From assembly GCA_016930515.1 (NCBI GenBank), contig JAFGGO010000106.1, positions 1 through 50,434 on the forward strand: 50,434 bases of DNA. Reading direction: 5' to 3'. Below the pieces are notes generated by a model. It was not told the DNA's origin. It worked only from the letters and a program-made list of their open reading frames with translations, and ran no database searches. The stretch comes from Promethearchaeota archaeon. GTDB taxonomy: Archaea; Asgardarchaeota; Lokiarchaeia; Sigyniarchaeales; SOKP01. The position numbers and the translations under genes were made by a program. Shown here in pieces: positions 1,208-11,931 of the stretch (positions are counted from its first letter, which is position 1; each line of letters starts with the position of its first letter).

Positions 1208-1888
1208 TCATAAAATGAGATTATTTATCAAATCTTCAAGGATTAACAAGTAAAACGCCAAAAATATCAATAAGGCTCCGCTTATAATCCTCAATGAAGT
1301 CCTATATTTCAAGCGGAAATCGTTAAGTTTATCAGATTCCAAGCCCTATCTTAGCGCTACCAAGATTATGACTATAGGGACAACTAGTCCCGTTAAATAG
1401 CTTATTATAAACAGGATTAAAAGCGGGTCAATAAAAACATTATATAGAAGAGCGAGATAAACGCCTCCGAAACAAGGTATCTTGATCAAAACAAATATTA
1501 CGCCAACCAAGAAAGAATAAACAACAGAGTTTTTTTCGATGAAATTCCTCAACACGGATTTAACTTTCTCTGGCGTTCCAAAAATCACGCTTCTTTCTTT
1601 TTTACACTCAATTATTTGCCAAGCCCCAACGATTATCAACAATCCCGCAAAAATATACTTGAATAAATACAAGGTCACAAAAAAGCGAATGAAAAATAGA
1701 AATAAAATCGAAATAAAGATGTAAGCAACTATCAAACCCAAGATCAACCCCACCGAGATTTCAATGAATTTTCCTTTATCTTGAATTAGTATTAAAGAGG
1801 TTCCAAAAACGCTAAGCATTAATAAAATACACCAAGTGCTACCTATCAGCAATCCTTATAAAAAAGGTGTTAATAAATCAACAGCCAT
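1208..1888 (-). pseudogene. Cytochrome c biogenesis CcdA/DsbD-like membrane protein, interrupted by two in-frame stops
   Basis: ATG at 1888 reads MAVDLLTPFL*GLLIGSTWC... (TAA 1856-1858). The track ORF 1346..1852 has the IPCFGGVYLALL motif. The frame continues past TAG (1346-1348) as GLESDKLNDFRLKYRTSLRIISGALLIFLAFYLL... to TGA at 1208-1210. Confidence 0.7.
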
Positions 1889-2124
1889 CTTAAATGAATT
1901 CCTCTTATTGAGTGTGATTTGTATTTTAGTTACTGAATATAGTTAATTAGGTATTTTCTATTAGAAATAGATTTTGGAAGCTTGTAAAATATTTAACTTT
2001 TTAATTTCTCTCATTTCCAGTTAGTTTATTATCGAACATTTTTTTCTAAATAATTTTAAATATGAATTTTTAAATACAATTCTGTCTAAGTTAATTAAAA
2101 CAAAAAACACAAAGTGCATTAAAT

Positions 2125-2499
2125 ATGTCAAATGAAAGCGAAATGTTAGAAGAACTAAAAAAAATTCGAGAATTACTCACGCCCAAACTTGAGTCACAAA
2201 AAGAAAAACCAAAAAATCTCGCAAGGGAGTTTTTAGAATTTATTAAAAAATACAAAATACTCGGTCTTGCGACCGCTTTTATCCTCGGTCTGGCGATTAA
2301 CGCACTAATTCTATCGCTAGCTCAAGATATCATAACACCAATACTAGGGCTTCTAATCCCCGATTTTGAAAACATCAGCGATATAAAACTTGGTGTATTT
2401 GGTATTGGGAACTTCATTGCTGCAGCAATTAATTTTGTAATCATTGCGATTATAATATTTCTCATCGTGAAATACGCAGCAAAAATCGGAATCGAATAA
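2125..2499 (+). CDS. mscL: Large-conductance mechanosensitive channel MscL family
   Basis: EFLEFIKKYKILGLATAFILG...DIITPIL...GNFIAAAINFVIIAIIIF matches MscL TM1/TM2 signatures. Confidence 0.9.
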   Translation: MSNESEMLEELKKIRELLTPKLESQKEKPKNLAREFLEFIKKYKILGLATAFILGLAINALILSLAQDIITPILGLLIPDFENISDIKLGVFGIGNFIAAAINFVIIAIIIFLIVKYAAKIGIE

Positions 2500-2812
2500 A
2501 TCAACAAGAAAAAATAAAGTAATTACTACCTAATTCTTTCATTTTTTTAAATCTTGAACAATATTAATGATAGTATGAATGATGCAATTCGCAAATTTAA
2601 CTTAATTTTTTGAAGATAATTTCCTATAGAACTCTCAGAATGTGTCTGATCTAAATTATTCGAAAAGTAAGATTATATATCATAAGATTTATGTTTTAAT
2701 CGCTCCAGTTATTTCCGTGTTTATATAATGGGAATGAAAAAAAATGGGTATTTAATTAAAAAAATTATTCAATTTCGTTGCTTTTTGTAAATTCAACCCA
2801 CTAAATTTCTAT

Positions 2813-4291
2813 TCAAGGTAGTGCTAGCCTCCCGGGGTGCATTATCATATTTGGATCGAACATTTTTTTTATTTTTCTCAAGTATTTCCAGTACATCGCT
2901 GCTTGACTGTACATGAGTGGCGCATGGATGTATGGATCAGGACGATAGTTCAGCCATCCTTGTTTTAAGGAATATTCTGTTGTTTCCCTGTTAACCTCTT
3001 GAACCCTTTCTATATCTTCGTCTTTCGTCGAGTCAAAACATATGATTGGCATGCATAATGCCTGCCTGCAACGCTCAATGCTTGCTATCCACATGACGGG
3101 AGCAAATCCATGATTTTCTAACACAGAATTATACATTTCGGCAAAATGAGCGCATTCATTCCAAGGAGTATACCACGTAATGAATAAAAAGCCCGCTTCC
3201 CAAAGGCTGTAGGGTACGGCGATCTTATTGGGTTTTTTTAATCTACTTGCGATTTGTTTAGGGTGTAGTTCTTGAGGAATCATTTGATCAGGGTCGCGAC
3301 ATCTCGTCGATTTTCGATAATTCGAACAATATGTATTAATCGTGTCAACGCAATGATCTAATTCCTTTTGAGATTGAGCCCAAATCTCCCAATTCATCCA
3401 CCACTCTGAATATCCCTTATTTTTAAAAAATTCGAGATCGTGCGGTATTTTATCTTTAGGCCACCTACACATTACTATCCCGTAATTACCCCCTTGAACC
3501 ATGACTGTATTGTGAGCTACGCCAAATTCAAGCTTTCCGAGATCGAAGGTTACATCTTGCATATCGTACGGATTTCCCATACCCCAATTTACTAATGTTT
3601 TGAACTTGGGATGTGGATATATTTTCACGGCAATTTTAGTAATTACGCCCATCGTACCTTGACTACCCATAATTGTTGACCATATATCCGGTCCTAAACC
3701 GTATTTATAAAATGGTTTTGCAAAAGGCAAGGCCCAAGAACCCGTTCTTAAAATATCTCCGTTTGGAAACACTATCTCAGCGCACATAAAATTATCACCT
3801 TGTGGACCTACACTCGAAGTATACAGAGAAAAACCTCTATCGATTGCATCGCCCATAACTGTTGCAGCTGGTGGCGCTCCATCGGGAATAGGAGGAGCCC
3901 AATCAGGATGATGTTTGAGCATGAATGCCCAAATTTGACCGTTCGTAACTCCTGGTTCAACTACAACATATCGATTTTCTTCGTCTACTTCTATTATCCT
4001 GTTCATCCTACTTAGATCGATTAAAATCCCTGCAGGTTTTATAGTAGGGCAAGAAAAACCACCCGATAATCCCGCTGAAATGGGTGATACTGCTACTTTT
4101 TCCGAAGAGCAATATACTAGTATTTTCCGAATTTCCTCCATGTATTTTGGTCTAACAACGATATCTGGAATTTGACTTTCCAAACCCATGACAGATTTTG
4201 CAAGATAAGACGCTGTAATTGCTTTATTATTGGATGCATATTTTTTTCCTACAATACCTATCATTGCCTCTAAATCCTTATTATCTGGCAC
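2813..4291 (-). CDS. FAD-binding oxidoreductase (VAO/PCMH/GlcD family)
   Basis: PDIVVRP, ILIDLSRMNRIIEVD, VVEPGVT, GSQGTMGVITK and C-terminal KKMFDPNMIMHPG motifs. The start may lie 4 codons upstream (ATT). Confidence 0.9.
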   Translation of the reverse strand: MPDNKDLEAMIGIVGKKYASNNKAITASYLAKSVMGLESQIPDIVVRPKYMEEIRKILVYCSSEKVAVSPISAGLSGGFSCPTIKPAGILIDLSRMNRIIEVDEENRYVVVEPGVTNGQIWAFMLKHHPDWAPPIPDGAPPAATVMGDAIDRGFSLYTSSVGPQGDNFMCAEIVFPNGDILRTGSWALPFAKPFYKYGLGPDIWSTIMGSQGTMGVITKIAVKIYPHPKFKTLVNWGMGNPYDMQDVTFDLGKLEFGVAHNTVMVQGGNYGIVMCRWPKDKIPHDLEFFKNKGYSEWWMNWEIWAQSQKELDHCVDTINTYCSNYRKSTRCRDPDQMIPQELHPKQIASRLKKPNKIAVPYSLWEAGFLFITWYTPWNECAHFAEMYNSVLENHGFAPVMWIASIERCRQALCMPIICFDSTKDEDIERVQEVNRETTEYSLKQGWLNYRPDPYIHAPLMYSQAAMYWKYLRKIKKMFDPNMIMHPGRLALP

Positions 4292-4372
4292 TTTATACGA
4301 AATTTTGATACAACTCCATTATTTTCAATATTAATTTTATAGATTTGCTATGTGCATTGAGTGATTAAATCG

Positions 4373-4424
4373 TGTTAACAATATAAGGATTTCCATGCGC
4401 ATGTGAATGATCTTTATGTTAACA
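4373..4424. promoter_or_regulatory. Array of three palindromes (TGTTAACA / CATGCGCATG / ATGTTAACAT) in a divergent promoter region
   Basis: Palindrome centres at 4376.5, 4398.5 and 4420.5, exactly 22 bp apart. Confidence 0.5.
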
Positions 4425-4539
4425 TCTAAAAATATATTTATGTATAACACACTATTATAATGTGTAAACTACTTAAACCTGCAAAATATAGACATAATGC
4501 ATAGATTTTCAACAATTATTTATAAAAGTAACCTATAAC

Positions 4540-5217
4540 ATGACAGATAAAGCAGAAAGAGGAAAACCAAGGCTTCATACGACTATTTCCAAAGAAAAAG
4601 AAGATATTTTAAACAAATACGTTAATTTAATAGATACATACGGAAATGAAATTTATGGGAATAAATCTAGAGTTATTGAGAAAGCATTAGAATTATTATA
4701 CAATTACCACAATCCAGAAATTGAGGATTGCCAGACGATTTGGAATAGAACTAGAAACGAGCTTGGAATGGTATTACTGGGAAAGACTACTTTCCTTGCT
4801 CTTCTTTCTGGCGATTATAAGCAGGCATTTAAAGAAAATAACGTCTTGGAATTGATTGAGTGGTACAATGAGAAGCTAATTGATGATATTAGTCTTGAAG
4901 AATTATTAGAAGCAATTAAAGACTTGTGGGTGGTTTTAAATTTTTTTAATAAAATTCGATTACACAAAGGAAGTAAGGGAAATTATATCATGAGTTTCCA
5001 CCACGATTTTCAAAGCAAGGAATATGGCAAGTTCTGGGGAGGGTTTTTTAATATATTTTTACTTTTTCAAAAAGATTGTAACGTGGAATATTTTATTAGA
5101 GATTCCTTTGTACGTCTGGTTATAAATCCACCTGAAGCTGATTCAAAAAGAAGGACCGCTAAATATAATATAAAAAGAACTTTTGAAAAAACACATAATG
5201 TGGATAAAATGGATTAG
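4540..5217 (+). CDS. Hypothetical regulator: N-terminal ribbon-helix-helix-like segment plus C-terminal V4R-like domain (paralog 1)
   Basis: RLHTTISKEKEDIL...KSRVIEKALELL has a beta-alpha-alpha pattern. The C-terminal alpha/beta region contains HHDFQSKEYGKFWG. Confidence 0.5.
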   Translation: MTDKAERGKPRLHTTISKEKEDILNKYVNLIDTYGNEIYGNKSRVIEKALELLYNYHNPEIEDCQTIWNRTRNELGMVLLGKTTFLALLSGDYKQAFKENNVLELIEWYNEKLIDDISLEELLEAIKDLWVVLNFFNKIRLHKGSKGNYIMSFHHDFQSKEYGKFWGGFFNIFLLFQKDCNVEYFIRDSFVRLVINPPEADSKRRTAKYNIKRTFEKTHNVDKMD

Positions 5218-5268
5218 TCTGAATGATTATAAGAAATAAAAATGATTTATTTAAGACCAGGTTATTAA

Positions 5269-5922
5269 ATGAATAAAGACGAAGATAAAGGGAGACCGCG
5301 ACTTCATACAACCATTTCTATGGAAAAAGAAGTCATTTTAGACAAGCTTGTAAAATTACTTGATAAAAATGGAAATGAAATTTACGGTAATAAGTCAAAA
5401 GTAATTGAGAAAGCGTTAGAATTATTAGATAATTACCACAATCCCGTAAATGAAAAGTCTCAGAATATTTGGAATAGAGGGAGGAACGAACTGAAAATGG
5501 TGTTAATATCAAAGAAAAGCTTTCTAGGGCTCCTATTGGGTGGTTTTAAACAAGGTTTTAAAGAAAATAACGCCTTAGAAATTATTGAATGGTACAAACA
5601 GAAACGCGTGGACGATATGGATGTTATAGAGCTCTTGAGGGCAATAAAAGACATGTGGATTGCTTCAAATCTTTTTTATAGAATTGTAATTCATAAAAGA
5701 ACGGGTGGAAAATATATAATGGATTTTCATCACGAGTTTTATAGCAAAGAATTCGGTAGATTTTGGGGGGAGTATTTTAAAGAGTTTTTATCTCTTCATA
5801 AGTTTTGTAAAAGCGAATATATAGTCAGAAATTCGTCTTTGCGTCTTGAAATTAATCCAACTTATAAAAGTGAAGTATATAAATTAAAACCTTTTAAATT
5901 AAACAATTTTGATGGGAATTAA
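5269..5922 (+). CDS. Tandem paralog of 4540..5217
   Basis: Colinear similarity over the full length (RPRLHTTIS, GNEIYGNKS, FKENN.LE.IEWY, FHH.F.SKE.G.FWG). Confidence 0.6.
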   Translation: MNKDEDKGRPRLHTTISMEKEVILDKLVKLLDKNGNEIYGNKSKVIEKALELLDNYHNPVNEKSQNIWNRGRNELKMVLISKKSFLGLLLGGFKQGFKENNALEIIEWYKQKRVDDMDVIELLRAIKDMWIASNLFYRIVIHKRTGGKYIMDFHHEFYSKEFGRFWGEYFKEFLSLHKFCKSEYIVRNSSLRLEINPTYKSEVYKLKPFKLNNFDGN

Positions 5923-5994
5923 ATCGTATTAAAATTAGTTCTCATGCTATTAAATAGAATTTATATGAGTAAAGAATGAATTATAGTCGAGATT

Positions 5995-6040
5995 TACACT
6001 CGCCTGCCCCGATGACCGCCTTTACGCCTGCAGTGGTCAT
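5995..6040 (-). repeat. att-like direct repeat: displaced copy of the last ~15 codons of rps11
   Basis: 45/46 nt identical to 6939..6984; the single mismatch is 6018 vs 6962. Confidence 0.95.
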
Positions 6041-6082
6041 AAATGTTATTGTTTTTATTTTATCTCATTAAAGGGAAAAGCG

Positions 6083-6126
6083 ATGATAATACCAAATATA
6101 ATATATATTTTGGTGATAATTATCAT
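6083..6126. promoter_or_regulatory. Inverted-repeat operator upstream of the TA operon
   Basis: ACCAAA-N12-TTTGGT (6091-6114) encloses a TATA-like core. Palindrome TGATAATTATCA lies at 6114-6125. Confidence 0.5.
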
Positions 6127-6156
6127 AATAGGGAATAATATAAAATAGGATTTAAT

Positions 6157-6417
6157 ATGAATACTGAAATTCGAAAAGTAGATTCTCAAGGGAGGATCGT
6201 CCTTCCGCTCAATTGGAGAGAAAAAGAGCTAAAAAATGTGGACGAAGTAATAATAGTCGAAGAAGGAGGAATATTAAAAATTATTCCAAAAAAAAATTTT
6301 GAATTGGCAAAATTTTTTGATTCGATCCAATACGACAATGATCTCGTTGAAAAACTCGAAGATTGGTCGGAATTTGAACGCTTTATTTTAAATGAAAAAC
6401 AAAACGATACAAAATGA
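6157..6417 (+). CDS. AbrB/MazE/SpoVT-family antitoxin (VapB-like)
   Basis: RKVDSQGRIVLP...VIIVEEGGILKIIP motif; ATGA overlap with the downstream PIN gene. Confidence 0.85.
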   Translation: MNTEIRKVDSQGRIVLPLNWREKELKNVDEVIIVEEGGILKIIPKKNFELAKFFDSIQYDNDLVEKLEDWSEFERFILNEKQNDTK

Positions 6418-6864
6418 TTTATCTCGACGCCAATATCTTTATTTATGCCTTTTTCAAACCTAAAAAAGGAAAAGTTTTATCTGAAAAAATAAAATGGTGT
6501 AAGAATGAGGCAAAATCAATAATATCAAGTATAGACGCTGAAGAAAAACAGTATTGCATTTCTTTAATTCAATTATCGGAGGTTATTAACTTGTTAAAAA
6601 ACGCCATGAATTGGGATTCGTTACAAGAGTTCGTCATGGGCCTTATTTCAAATAACGCTATTGAGGTAATCTAAATAACCAAGTTAGAATACATTAATGC
6701 AGTTAGCAAGATGAAGGATTTGAAAATGGACGCTAACGATACATCAGCTTATCTCTTGATGAATAAAAAAAAACATAAAAGAGATTTATAATTTTGACAG
6801 GCATTTTGAGTTATTATCGGATAAAAAATGCCTTCCAGAAATACCCGAAAAATTTAAGAAATAA
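6414..6864 (+). pseudogene. PIN-domain (VapC-like) toxin, disrupted by a nonsense codon and a frameshift
   Basis: MIYLDANIFIYA...LSEV, then TAA 6672-6674. The frame continues ITKLEYINAV...MDANDTSAYLLM; removing one A from the A9 run (6765-6773) gives NIKEIYNFDRHF...KK* ending at 6864. Confidence 0.85.
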
Positions 6865-6937
6865 TAATTATCTGTCGTATTTTATAATAGTATATAATAA
6901 AAGAAGATTTGATGTAAATAATAAGTCATTGCAGGCT

Positions 6938-7339
6938 CTACACTCGCCTGCCCCGATGACCACCTTTACGCCTGCAGTGGTCATGACTCTTTGGAGTTGT
7001 CTCCTCGATTCTTCCCACGTTTAGCCCCGACCTCGCTAAAGCCCTGATGCAGGCCTGAGCGCCAGGACCTGGCGTTTGTGACTTGTTTCCGCCCGGTGCC
7101 CTTACTTTAATGTGTATTCCTGTGACTCCTTTATCCTTCAATTCGTTAGCGGTTCTAAATCCACATTGCATGGCAGCGTACGGATTTGATTGATCCCTAT
7201 CGGCCTTAACAACCATCCCGCCGCTACATTTCGCAAGCGTTTCTTGTCCGCTCAAATCGGTGGCAGTTACGATCGTGTTATTGTAGCTACTAAAAATGTG
7301 GACGATTGCCCAGTACTCTTTTCTATCTCTTTTACTCAT
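6938..7339 (-). CDS. rps11: 30S ribosomal protein uS11
   Basis: [33 protein letters not shown]. Confidence 0.98.
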
Positions 7340-7357
7340 GTTTTAAACCTCATTGCG

Positions 7358-7855
7358 TTATTTTTTGGCTCCCGCAAACGGACTTGCGCTCGCAAAGCTG
7401 ATAAAGTCTTCCTCTTCTCTTTTCACGAGATAAGAAGGGGAATTTACTCTTTTTTCTCCAACTTGAACGTGCTTGTGAACGATCATTTGTCTTGCCTCGT
7501 AAATCGATTTTGCCATGCCTTTTTCAAAAACCATGGTTTGCAACCTTCGTTTTAGTACTTCTTCGACCGTGAGCAATAGTATATCTTCGAACTCGGCTTC
7601 AGAGCCTAAAATGCCCAAGCGGTTCAATTTTCTAAGGAGTTCTTGCTGAACCTCCTTGGCTTGCTCGGGCGGAAGCGATCTCGACCTTCGAGCAATGTCT
7701 CTCCAGTTTCCCAGCATGGTACGCGATTTCCAGAACTCTCGCTTGTTTCTCAAGCCGTATTTTCCTAGAAATTCTAGCTCTTCAGCAAGTCTTTCCCTTT
7801 CGAAGGGTCGTTTGGGTTTCTTGAACTTTTTTTTTAGTCGTCTCGGGTCTCCCAT
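7358..7855 (-). CDS. rps4: 30S ribosomal protein uS4 (archaeal type)
   Basis: MGDPRR...YGLRNKRE...RRLQT...ARQMIVH.H...PSYLV. Confidence 0.98.
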   Translation of the reverse strand: MGDPRRLKKKFKKPKRPFERERLAEELEFLGKYGLRNKREFWKSRTMLGNWRDIARRSRSLPPEQAKEVQQELLRKLNRLGILGSEAEFEDILLLTVEEVLKRRLQTMVFEKGMAKSIYEARQMIVHKHVQVGEKRVNSPSYLVKREEEDFISFASASPFAGAKK

Positions 7856-8147
7856 TATACAATCACAATGCGCGTTTAAAGAAATAAGTTCTCAATTGTT
7901 CTTACTTCGTTAATTTGTACTTTAGTATAACGTAAGGACCATTATTAATTTTTTCATTTTCAACTTCTTTACTGGAAAATACCTTGAAACGATTGGATTA
8001 TATATTGATTTACAGGTCAAAATAACGATAGTGGAGGATACTATCAAATAATATTCGATCAACCATTTAATCTCGTACTGAAAGAATCTGATGTTTTTTT
8101 TAATAAATAGGCAAATCAAAAATAAGGTGGTGCGAGTAAATTTAGAA

Positions 8148-8633
8148 TTACTTTTGACCTCTTTTCTTCCGAACGACGCCAATAACAAGCCCGTGTCGAC
8201 CTGTGGATTTCGTTCGTTGACCCCTTACTTTCAATCGGAAGTGGTGCCTGACGCCCTTGTAGCTCTTGATGCGCTTCATTCGATCGATGTCTCGCTTTAC
8301 GGTAATGTCCAATTGGTTTCCTATAACGTGCTTGTCGCCTCCATCCCTGAGGTCGTTCTTTCGATTGACCATCCAATTTGGAACCCCGTATTTAATCGGG
8401 TCCAATATGATTTCTTCGATATTATTAAGGTCTTTTTCCCCCAACACTCCAATCCGGATGTTGGGATCCACATTTGCAACCATGACTACCGCTTGAGCAA
8501 ATCTCCGTCCCACGCCTCTAATTTGCGTTAAGGCGTGCTCCACTTTCGAGCTACCATCGACTTGCGATCGAAGCTTTCGGAAAAACACTTTTTCCCGATA
8601 ATTTTTTGGTCGTATTGCTGGTACCGAACTCAT
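8148..8633 (-). CDS. rps13: 30S ribosomal protein uS13
   Basis: ALTQIRGVGRRFA, PNWMVNR, SYKGVRH...VRGQRTKSTGR. Confidence 0.97.
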   Translation of the reverse strand: MSSVPAIRPKNYREKVFFRKLRSQVDGSSKVEHALTQIRGVGRRFAQAVVMVANVDPNIRIGVLGEKDLNNIEEIILDPIKYGVPNWMVNRKNDLRDGGDKHVIGNQLDITVKRDIDRMKRIKSYKGVRHHFRLKVRGQRTKSTGRHGLVIGVVRKKRGQK

Positions 8634-8742
8634 ATAAGATCAATTCTTTTATTAACTACTATGGTTAGTAAAAAGCAGAATTTAATATTAATTTTTTGGT
8701 TTCGATCTCTTAGAAGTAGGTTTTGAATTATTTAAGACAATT

Positions 8743-9183
8743 TTACTCCTTTTTTACGATTTGCATGCCCCTAACACCAGATTTTTTGCGATGTCTCCAG
8801 CCCTTAAAACTCTTCATTCGCTTCATCATATCGATATCGCATTTTGTGGTAATATCTAATTGGTTGCCTATATAGTGATCGTTCCATCCATTCTTAAAAT
8901 CATATTTTCTATTAAGCATCTCGACAGGAACGCCGTGCATTTCAGGATTCAAGGCTATCTCTTCGATTCGATCAAGATCGATTTGTTCAAGCGCCCCAAT
9001 TCGAATATTAGGATCTATTTTAGCAATCATAATTATCAGTTGAGCATATTTTTTGCCAATACCCCTGATTTGAGTTAAGGCGCGCTCTACTTTTGAGCTT
9101 CCGTCTACTTGAGATCGAAGCTTTCGGAAAAATACTTTTTCTCGGTAATTATCAGGTCTAATTGCTGGTATAGTATCATCCAT
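8743..9183 (-). CDS. rps13: Second, divergent uS13 paralog lacking the C-terminal tail
   Basis: N-terminal ~40 aa nearly identical to 8148..8633; colinear up to VRG, then ends MQIVKKE. Confidence 0.85.
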   Translation of the reverse strand: MDDTIPAIRPDNYREKVFFRKLRSQVDGSSKVERALTQIRGIGKKYAQLIIMIAKIDPNIRIGALEQIDLDRIEEIALNPEMHGVPVEMLNRKYDFKNGWNDHYIGNQLDITTKCDIDMMKRMKSFKGWRHRKKSGVRGMQIVKKE

Positions 9184-9369
9184 TTTCGAAACCTCTTGAT
9201 AATTATAATCACTAAGGATTAATATTGATATTCATTGTGAGTATTAAAGCTTAAATGATGACAAAATCCTAGACTTTACTGAATGAAAGTTAAAAAATTC
9301 AAATAGTATCGCATGTAATCTTATTATATCACAAGAAGATTAACCCAATAAAAAGGATTTTTTGAAAAC

Positions 9370-10656
9370 ATGCTTGACATCGAATTGTTCCGAACGAACC
9401 TTGAAAAAATAATAGGATCGGAAAAAAAAAGGTTTAAAGATCCAATAAACGCGGAAAAGACGCTGGAATACGATACAAAATGGAGAAATACCATAACGGA
9501 ATTACAAAAATTAAGGCAAAAAAGAAACGAAATAAACAATCAAATTAATAACTATAAGAAAAGCAAGGAAAATGCGAAAGCTGAAGAAGCAATAAAAACA
9601 TCCAAGGAATTAAAAGACCAGATTGAAGTTTTAGAAAGAAATGAGAAAGAATTCCTTGAAAAGAGAGATGATTTTCGCTACAAGGTAGGGAACATCATAC
9701 ACGAATCCGTACCGATCGCCGAGACCGAGGAAGGAAACAAGGTGGAAAGAACGGGGGGACAGCACCCAAAGTTCTCATTTACTCCTTTAAATCACGTTGA
9801 CCTCGTAGAAACGGGTTTTGCTGACACGAAAAAGGCCGCAGAGATCGCAGGTTCGAGGTTTTACTACCTTCGGGGCGATTTGGTCATGCTCAATCTTGCG
9901 CTCTTGAAATTTGCATTGGATATTTTAGAGAAGAAAGGATTCGTTCCCATGTGGACCCCATTTTTCGTAAAACACGAAGTAATCAAGGCAGCAGCCGAGT
10001 TAGCGGATTTTGAAGATACTCTCTATAAGATACAAGATGAAGATCTTTACATGATTGCAACTTCGGAACAAACGATTGCGGCGTTCCATTACAACGAAAT
10101 CTTGGATCCCGAATCGCTTCCATTCAAATACGCGGGTGTGTCGTCGTGCTTTAGGAGAGAGGCGGGTTCGCACGGTAAGGATACCTTGGGAATTTTTAGA
10201 ATTCACCAGTTCGAAAAGATCGAGCAATTCATCTTTTGCAAGCCAGAAGAATCGTGGCAATTTCACGAAGAACTCATTTCAAACGCCGAAGAGATATACA
10301 AGCAATTAGAGCTCCCCTATAGGATAGTTAACATTGCGTCCGGTGATCTTAACGACAACGCCGCAAAGAAATACGACCTTGAAGCGTGGTTTCCAGCCTC
10401 TAATACTTATCGAGAGCTCGTATCGTGTAGTAATTGCCTTGATTATCAGGCTCGAAAGCTCAAAATAAGGATGGGAAAGGTCGGGGGAGCAACGGAAAAA
10501 CAAACGGTTCACACGCTAAACTCGACGGCCATTGCTACGGAAAGGACGATTTGTTGCATTTTAGAAAATTACCAAAACGATGACCAGACCGTCAGGGTAC
10601 CAAAAGCGCTTCAAAAATATATGAACGGCAAAAAGATTATAAACCCCGTTAAATGA
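9370..10656 (+). CDS. serS: Serine--tRNA ligase
   Basis: N-terminal coiled coil; ATSEQ, CFRREAG, RIHQFEKIEQF, ELVSCSNC, HTLNSTAIATER. Confidence 0.98.
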   Translation: MLDIELFRTNLEKIIGSEKKRFKDPINAEKTLEYDTKWRNTITELQKLRQKRNEINNQINNYKKSKENAKAEEAIKTSKELKDQIEVLERNEKEFLEKRDDFRYKVGNIIHESVPIAETEEGNKVERTGGQHPKFSFTPLNHVDLVETGFADTKKAAEIAGSRFYYLRGDLVMLNLALLKFALDILEKKGFVPMWTPFFVKHEVIKAAAELADFEDTLYKIQDEDLYMIATSEQTIAAFHYNEILDPESLPFKYAGVSSCFRREAGSHGKDTLGIFRIHQFEKIEQFIFCKPEESWQFHEELISNAEEIYKQLELPYRIVNIASGDLNDNAAKKYDLEAWFPASNTYRELVSCSNCLDYQARKLKIRMGKVGGATEKQTVHTLNSTAIATERTICCILENYQNDDQTVRVPKALQKYMNGKKIINPVK

Positions 10657-10689
10657 TCAAATATATTAAAAGAAGACAAGACCAAGAGG

Positions 10690-11931
10690 ATGAATATGGG
10701 AGAAGTATTATTGGAGGAATTTGAAGAATATTACAACAATAAAATCGATTTAAAATATTCTAAGATTAAAAAAGCTGTAAAAAAGCTCATGATCGATATT
10801 GAAACGAACTTGGTCGAAATTAAAAATAGCGTCGACCGTTTTCAAGAGGCTGCTGGGGATATCGGAGAAAAGGCCACGCGATCTCTGAATTTCTTCACGG
10901 ATAGGATTAACAAGCAGCTCGACGAGATAGAAATTCCCGATGATAATCAAATTACTCATGAAAACCTCACAAAATTATCAAACGAGGTAAAAAAACTATT
11001 CACGGTAATCAACGAGATCGCGCGAAAAGCACTCCCAAAGTTTCACAAGGAAGTTCAACCTCAGATAAAAGAGCTTAATTACTTAACTCGCAAGCTCCAA
11101 AAGCGACTTGCAATATTCAACCAATTTTTGAAGAAAAAATACGGGGACTTGAAAAGCGCAGAAGAGCTCGTAAAAAAAAAACTTCCAAAGTTTTTCACGC
11201 TTAAGGATAACATTGAAAATGTAAAAATGGATTTAACCAATTTTGAAAACGAATTCGAAGAGCGTAAAAACACTCAATCAGAGTTAACTGCTGAACTCAT
11301 GAAACTTGAAAAAAGCGATTTATTTAAAGAACTTGAAAAATTAAGAGACGAATTATTCAAACACAAGATTAAAGTTAACGACGAGCTTGGATTTAAAAAA
11401 GCTCTTAAGAAACTGAAAGTTGAACTGGAGAAAAATTCTTCACTCGTCCCTGGACTCGATATTAACTACCTGAAGGAGTTTCTAAAAAATCCCATTCAAA
11501 CTTTATCGAACGATACTTCAAACATGCAAAATTTTTCGGAACTCATGGTAAAACTGCGACACGCATTGGAAGAGAACAAGCTTAACTTAAAAGCCGATAA
11601 AAAGGAAAAAACCATCGAACACATCAACAAGATATTTGATGAAAAACAACTTTACAAGGACATAGATAAGATCAAGGATTTAAAATCTAAAATCGCAGAA
11701 ATGGAGAAAAAAATTAGCGAAGCGGGTATTTCAAGCAAGTTAGAAGAAGTTAAAAATCAGATTTCTATTAATACCGTAAAACTCGAACACCTTGAAAACG
11801 ACCTTGAGAAAAAAAACAGCGATTTCACGAGATATCTCAATGTTTTAAAAAAAGAAAGAGAAGACTTCCATGATTTACTGAGTCAAGAAATAGGCGAAGA
11901 TGTAAGGATAAAAATAGAATTTACATTTTAA
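10690..11931 (+). CDS. Hypothetical long coiled-coil protein
   Basis: 413-aa ORF rich in E/K/L heptads; no catalytic motif recognised. Confidence 0.7.
   Translation: MNMGEVLLEEFEEYYNNKIDLKYSKIKKAVKKLMIDIETNLVEIKNSVDRFQEAAGDIGEKATRSLNFFTDRINKQLDEIEIPDDNQITHENLTKLSNEVKKLFTVINEIARKALPKFHKEVQPQIKELNYLTRKLQKRLAIFNQFLKKKYGDLKSAEELVKKKLPKFFTLKDNIENVKMDLTNFENEFEERKNTQSELTAELMKLEKSDLFKELEKLRDELFKHKIKVNDELGFKKALKKLKVELEKNSSLVPGLDINYLKEFLKNPIQTLSNDTSNMQNFSELMVKLRHALEENKLNLKADKKEKTIEHINKIFDEKQLYKDIDKIKDLKSKIAEMEKKISEAGISSKLEEVKNQISINTVKLEHLENDLEKKNSDFTRYLNVLKKEREDFHDLLSQEIGEDVRIKIEFTF

Follow-up and report, generated by a model that had tools for sequence, protein, structure and literature searches.

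How does a toxin-antitoxin (TA) gene pair come to be flanked on both sides by the tail of a ribosomal protein gene, with no integrase beside it? The question is raised by a contig from a Promethearchaeota archaeon of the Lokiarchaeia (GenBank JAFGGO010000106.1), of which a stretch of 50,434 nucleotides, hereafter called the window, was analyzed. A sequence-only reading of the window had proposed an element family that targets the 3' end of rps11 and restores its reading frame, with the present insert either reduced to its addiction module or mobilized in trans.

The repeated end of rps11 and the DNA that it brackets

The rps11 gene (uS11) occupies 6938..7339 on the minus strand, is intact at 133 amino acids (PF00411, E = 3e-38), and is present as a single copy in the genome. 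A 46-nt sequence at its 3' end (6939..6984, minus strand, in frame, with a TAG stop codon at 6938-6940) recurs at 5995-6040 with 45 of 46 nucleotides identical and a sharp loss of identity on both sides. The distal copy belongs to an orphan rps11 3' stub (5994..6040, minus strand) that consists of 14 codons and a TAA stop. The sole mismatch (6018 versus 6962) falls at the third position of a glycine codon and is silent, as is the difference between the two stop codons; the nearest relative, genome G003, has the same state as the gene copy at both of these variable sites. The whole 4.0-Mb genome holds these two copies of the repeat and no others. The sequence-only reading had described the duplication, its abrupt ends and its two silent differences correctly, and its claim that an integrase-free insert had left rps11 whole was also borne out.

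The 898 nt that separate the repeat copies contain an abrB gene and a vapC pseudogene and no mobility gene. Next to the stub lies an AT-rich (19% GC) putative promoter/operator region of the TA pair (6041..6156, plus strand). A similar motif occurs upstream of homologous TA pairs, and a scan for promoters and terminators gave results at chance level. The AbrB/MazE-type antitoxin gene (6157..6417, plus strand; 86 amino acids; PF04014, E = 8e-7) is intact, and its product is about 74% identical to many Promethearchaeota homologues. The VapC (PIN) toxin pseudogene (6414..6864, plus strand) matches PF01850 with E = 0.002 over its first 86 amino acids; it is interrupted by an in-frame TAA (6672-6674) and, within an A9 run at 6765-6773, by a frameshift. 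Most PIN homologues elsewhere align over about 147-149 amino acids without a stop. With its toxin gene disrupted twice, the addiction module is dead. Both genes named in the earlier reading are present between the copies, but that reading had missed the lesions in the PIN gene, and its view of the insert as an addiction module does not hold for a module inactivated in this way.

Beyond the stub lie two tandem paralogous genes (4540..5922, plus strand) that are 60% identical and have PF27313 on record. They would be the former downstream neighbours of rps11 in the recipient of the insert, and in those relatives of the same genus that were checked neither was found behind rps11. Two further members of this paralogue family occur elsewhere in the genome.

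Other duplicated sequences were also observed in this genome. A second uS13 gene (8743-9183) lies upstream of the main copy, is 64% identical to it, and is without the C-terminal tail. This gene may represent either an older 5' stub of mirror-image type or a paralogue in the course of diverging; no second full uS13 copy was found in 163 loci of relatives. Another gene-end duplication (C7:310-398 and 1482-1570; 89 nt, 89% identical, 1172 nt apart) overlaps the 3' end of a gene encoding 261 amino acids.

The reality of the structure was assessed with Logan contigs of the probable source run, which come from another assembler on the same sample, not from an independent sample, and which cover 1269-6141, 6133-6816 and 6807-11339 at 100% identity. 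This second assembly breaks twice inside the insert and overlaps there by only 9-10 nt, as might be seen if the structure were an assembly artefact or a strain chimera. Each repeat copy is nevertheless spanned together with its unique flanks by contigs of 100% identity, so the repeats are not a collapse artefact, and the same structure was found in other genomes. An artefact or chimera is therefore extremely improbable, and assembly artefact was rejected on the strength of the spanning contigs. Both vapC lesions are also present in the Logan sequence. No circle joint was listed among the matches to the Logan contigs, which are contigs and not reads. Two metatranscriptomes yielded no sequence matching the window, a result that carries no weight as evidence.

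Stubs and repeats downstream of rps11 in relatives

The DNA 3' of rps11 is a turnover hot spot at which most inserts are without an rps11 stub. It is highly variable in three genera (g1, g2 and g11), and the unrelated cargo that separates rps11 from its usual downstream gene varies from none to over 17 kb. The order of the ribosomal genes themselves also varies: rps13-rps4 is inverted downstream of rps11 in some lineages, and small genes lie between rps4 and rps11 in others (order variants at L117:3186-4191, L192, L250 and L256-L259). In the loci read, rpoD does not follow rps11.

The earlier reading had suggested searching relatives for second copies of the rps11 3' end with other cargo, and its proposal survives on this point insofar as such copies exist. 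Pattern and covariance-model searches of 150-161 genomes gave one further strong double, in genome G102 of a different genus; the covariance-model search of 150 genomes gave strong second copies in G000 and G102 only. The G102 block comprises 56 nt plus 7 nt past the stop and starts at -55 relative to the rps11 stop. Its cargo consists of an ATP-grasp ligase, an alanine racemase and a DUF5698 gene, and includes no integrase. Profile search located further stubs in metagenome loci L097 and L117, where a 216-nt stub is accompanied by about 560 nt of cargo without a clear gene, and in L166, where a 45-nt piece from within rps11 occurs without the 3' end. Because it is internal to the gene, the L166 stub cannot be an att site. 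The duplications at rps11 measure 46, about 63 and 216 nt, and the cargo between the copies is unrelated in each case.

The positions at which these repeats start, counted in nucleotides from the rps11 stop, are -215, -139, -55, -46, +12, +17, +21, +56, +57, +60, +64, +102 and +127. Stubs of rps11 proper are found in three other Lokiarchaeia lineages (-55, -139 and -215) besides the window (-46). Several of the repeats that start from +12 to +127 past the stop lie within remnants of a Zn-ribbon gene that is often found 3' of rps11. Direct repeats were present at 10 of 127 non-redundant rps11 loci, the window being left out, compared with none at 225 ends of genes that are conserved in the neighbourhood (p = 3e-5) and with 10 of 250 random own-genome positions, where they are mostly older paralogue pairs and against which the excess at rps11 is non-significant (p = 0.14); owing to kinship among the loci, these p-values overstate the significance. 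Neither an exact empty site nor a donor was found; the genomes of the same genus have one rps11 end, other downstream genes and short contigs.

One explanation of these structures is that a tyrosine recombinase recognized an attB within the 3' end of rps11 and inserted an element there, and that the window holds a decayed or trans-mobilized, CIME-like remnant. Streptococcus is known to have integrase-free CIMEs at the 3' ends of genes for ribosomal proteins (PMC7563491), and the block in G102, which likewise continues to the stop and 7 nt beyond it, is similar. We nonetheless consider this explanation doubtful. The starts of the stubs proper at -46, -55, -139 and -215 suggest that independent insertions have no fixed att core in common, and with starts scattered from -215 to +127 and one stub internal to the gene, an rps11-targeting element family with a fixed att site finds no backing here. 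The earlier reading had suggested looking for tyrosine recombinases near copies of the rps11 end. A search that combined a 9-sequence profile, motif scans and Pfam on fragmented genomes found neither a tyrosine nor a serine recombinase at 237 rps11 loci, which cover 1.3 Mb of downstream DNA in total (53 of them with at least 10 kb). None of the listed PF00589 matches that were checked in 135 genomes lies near rps11 (54 weaker ones aside). In the window's own genome the tyrosine recombinases are represented by one match, a XerA-like protein of 309 amino acids whose size is conserved across the family, and there are two resolvase-family matches, of which the intact one is an IS607-type TnpA; the large serine recombinase domain PF07508 was not found in it. 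Orphan rps11 ends gave no pattern match in viral contigs, and none was seen among 120 listed exact-pattern metagenome matches except for two cases at contig edges.

Tyrosine-integrase att sites are often symmetric sequences that run to the end of a gene, and the repeat in the window has a feature of this kind. An 8-bp inverted repeat with a 13-nt spacer (6956..6984), formed by His-Asp-His ... Gly-Gly-His codons, is matched at 8 of 8 positions in the gene copy and at 7 of 8 in the stub. The start of the stub coincides exactly with its edge, as the earlier reading had observed, so that the block of identity begins at a symmetric sequence and extends to the stop. The last 400 nt of the window's rps11 contain no other 8-bp inverted repeat of this type, the background for such a repeat is about 0.4% of rps11 positions, and the G102 allele has 7 of the 8 positions, with a stub that begins 9 nt upstream. 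All of this would suit insertion by a tyrosine recombinase. Against it, the perfect inverted repeat is present in 2 of 125 rps11 alleles, with 1.5% expected under codon reshuffling, and the hairpin of the gene copy is no more stable than shuffles (z from -0.7 to -1.5). By these comparisons the inverted repeat arises from the codons, and a symmetric recombinase-binding site, present in the window's allele, is not conserved in rps11. The coincidence of the stub start with the inverted-repeat edge is a post hoc observation, and a hairpin may have set the breakpoint.

Hairpins of another kind were observed in rps11 genes of relatives. Of 182 distinct rps11 genes from Lokiarchaeia, about 16 have hairpin insertions of 29-31 nt that bring in stops or frameshifts; the insertions occupy about five positions in the gene and resemble tRNA-type introns. 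They were recorded at loci L057, L180, L088, L096, L097, L100, L109, L114 and L140, and at the further loci L145, L150, L151, L175, L194, L196, L201 and L214. One insertion site (G025 and G122) falls in the spacer between the two arms of the inverted repeat described for the window.

Origin of the two copies

The differences between gene and stub bear on whether the copies arose in place or from two sources. Over four lineages, 35 silent and 4 replacement codon differences were counted, whereas a random codon change is silent in 28% of cases; the silent bias has P = 3e-4 even if half of the changes arose in the working copy. The ratio of 35 to 4 thus indicates that the copies come from two working alleles and not from decay after duplication in place. 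The window alone contributes 2 silent differences and no replacement, a weak result with a chance probability of about 0.08, and since it has just these two differences the two-allele argument rests on the relatives. A two-allele origin is compatible both with a site-specific element, for which silent differences are predicted too, and with homology-anchored uptake.

Duplication in place could have occurred as a long target-site duplication made by a transposase acting in trans, or as a tandem duplication followed by deletion. The window's copies differ at two sites only and G003 agrees at both with the gene copy, as would be expected if the stub had mutated later. The silent bias over the four lineages is unlike the decay of a dead copy, however, and no terminal inverted repeats were seen by eye at the ends of the insert, nor does a second copy of the insert exist in its own genome. 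We regard such an origin as very unlikely.

The AbrB-VapC family provides a further line of evidence. It was found in 26 of 161 genomes with a patchy distribution in Lokiarchaeia, and the other four genomes of the window's genus have no match to it; it was seen next to rps11 in the window only. Of about 18 distinct AbrB-VapC loci besides the window's, 4 are bracketed by direct repeats (93-298 nt, 78-92% identical), compared with 5 of 300 and 2 of 300 in controls. These repeats are mutually unrelated: at three loci the repeat duplicates a portion of an adjacent gene or of its promoter, and at the remaining one it lies outside every called gene. The presence of such scars at unrelated loci implies that the scar reflects the mode of arrival of the cassette and not rps11. 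Together with an inverted repeat that is not conserved among alleles, the scars at unrelated genes also speak against the rps11-targeting element family that had been proposed.

The structure is probably an ordinary scar of homology-anchored recombination at a gene-swapping hot spot, and not the attachment site of a new element. We infer the following geometry for the exchange. The donor would have been a close relative that already had abrB-vapC behind rps11, and its DNA, whatever its presumed route of entry, would have undergone a homologous crossover within the conserved rps13-rps4-rps11 block, by which an intact rps11 end and the TA pair were supplied. The far, non-homologous end of the donor DNA would then have joined the recipient illegitimately 46 nt before the old rps11 stop, placing the illegitimate joint at 6040/6041. 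The old rps11 end would thereby have been displaced downstream as a stub, giving the order intact rps11, cargo, old end, in which the proximal copy would represent the donor allele and the stub the old end of the recipient gene. Where the joint fell past the stop, the flank alone would be duplicated, as in the relatives. For the enzymes, host homologous recombination and one illegitimate joint would suffice, and an element-encoded recombinase would be unnecessary. While still active, the TA pair may have stabilized the insert by guarding it against loop-out between the repeats, with decay of the toxin since; protection from loop-out could also be the reason for the enrichment of TA pairs between such repeats.

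A three-gene module was observed directly 3' of rps11 at L035:3528-6361 (G015), and likewise in no fewer than 13 further genomes that belong to genera g2 and g11. It encodes a Zn-ribbon protein, a protein of 530 amino acids with an HNH-like motif, and a winged-helix protein. In G015 the module is followed by defence-type cargo, for example type I restriction-modification, PIN and ASCH genes, as judged from their translations. The structural model of the 530-amino-acid protein has a pLDDT of 91, and the protein had no Pfam match, no Atlas match and no Foldseek match at an E value of 0.001 or better. The module has no match in the window's genome.

The same homology-anchored outcome might be driven by a dedicated cut, made at the hairpin or by the HNH-like protein of the module beside rps11 in g2 and g11. 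A Zn-ribbon gene lies directly 3' of rps11 in at least 16 genomes, and close homologues of the 530-amino-acid neighbour adjoin rps11 in 14. Residues 334-455 of that protein weakly resemble HNH domains (Cap5: Z 5.7, rmsd 3.0, 92 residues aligned; Cas9 HNH: Foldseek probability 0.44), a match that nevertheless lies inside the range of chance fold similarity. Furuta et al. 2010 (PMC2853133) proposed that long target duplications result from double-strand breaks. A dedicated cut appears quite unlikely given that the window's own genome has no match to the Zn-ribbon or 530-amino-acid gene and that the AbrB-VapC family leaves the same scar at unrelated loci. A programmed landing site at the 3' end of rps11 is likewise unlikely; there the hairpin, or the HNH-like module of the related genera, would direct breaks or a recombinase, and cargo such as defence islands, TA pairs and enzymes would accumulate behind an essential ribosomal gene with no integrase. 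The events would be of greater importance if the hairpin or the HNH-like neighbour does direct them.

Comparison with known systems

The literature searched contained no description of such a pattern in Asgard archaea, and nothing relevant on Asgard att sites in ribosomal genes or on archaeal vapBC flanked by repeats. As a TA pair, the cargo is like VapBC type II systems with an AbrB-type antitoxin in that the AbrB/MazE gene overlaps the downstream PIN gene, and it differs from them in the stop and frameshift of its toxin gene. Among integrative elements, those of Streptococcus are near to the structure: there CIMEs, IMEs and ICEs occupy rpsI, rpmG and rplL (PMC7563491). The CIMEs resemble the window in that direct repeats at the end of a gene for a ribosomal protein, on its 3' side, enclose cargo that includes no integrase, whereas their fixed att sites are held in common with integrase-bearing relatives at the same gene, neither of which was found here.

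A likeness is also seen to insertion with long target duplication, described for restriction-modification genes (Furuta et al. 2010, PMC2853133). Two Haemophilus cases in that study have 46-bp repeats with 44 of 46 positions identical that overlap the 3' end of a gene, and no archaeal case survived its screen. Shared features are a small selfish complex, a unique direct repeat of more than 30 bp (46 nt here), an insert of less than 20 kb (898 nt here) with no other mobility gene, and variable repeat lengths (here 46, about 63 and 216 nt at rps11, and 93-298 nt elsewhere). The present case differs in that the cargo is VapBC instead of restriction-modification genes, the host is an archaeon, the target is a ribosomal protein gene, and a genome with the exact empty site was not found.

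Sequential displacement by homology-facilitated illegitimate recombination has been described for Vibrio cholerae T6SS arrays and for Rhs/CDI orphan ends (Kirchberger et al. 2017, PMC5361080). There, too, homologous exchange takes place at a conserved anchor while the far end is attached illegitimately, and old 3' ends move downstream; the copies come from different strains and not from duplication. Scattered joints, seen here from -215 to +127, would be expected of such recombination. The anchor in the window differs in being a housekeeping ribosomal operon, and the cargo is unrelated to it. The locus is best read as an Asgard example of a known, integrase-free kind of gene gain whose pattern has already been published for bacteria. 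On this reading, conserved ribosomal genes are places where Lokiarchaeia strains swap DNA, and a TA pair of small size can travel by that route.
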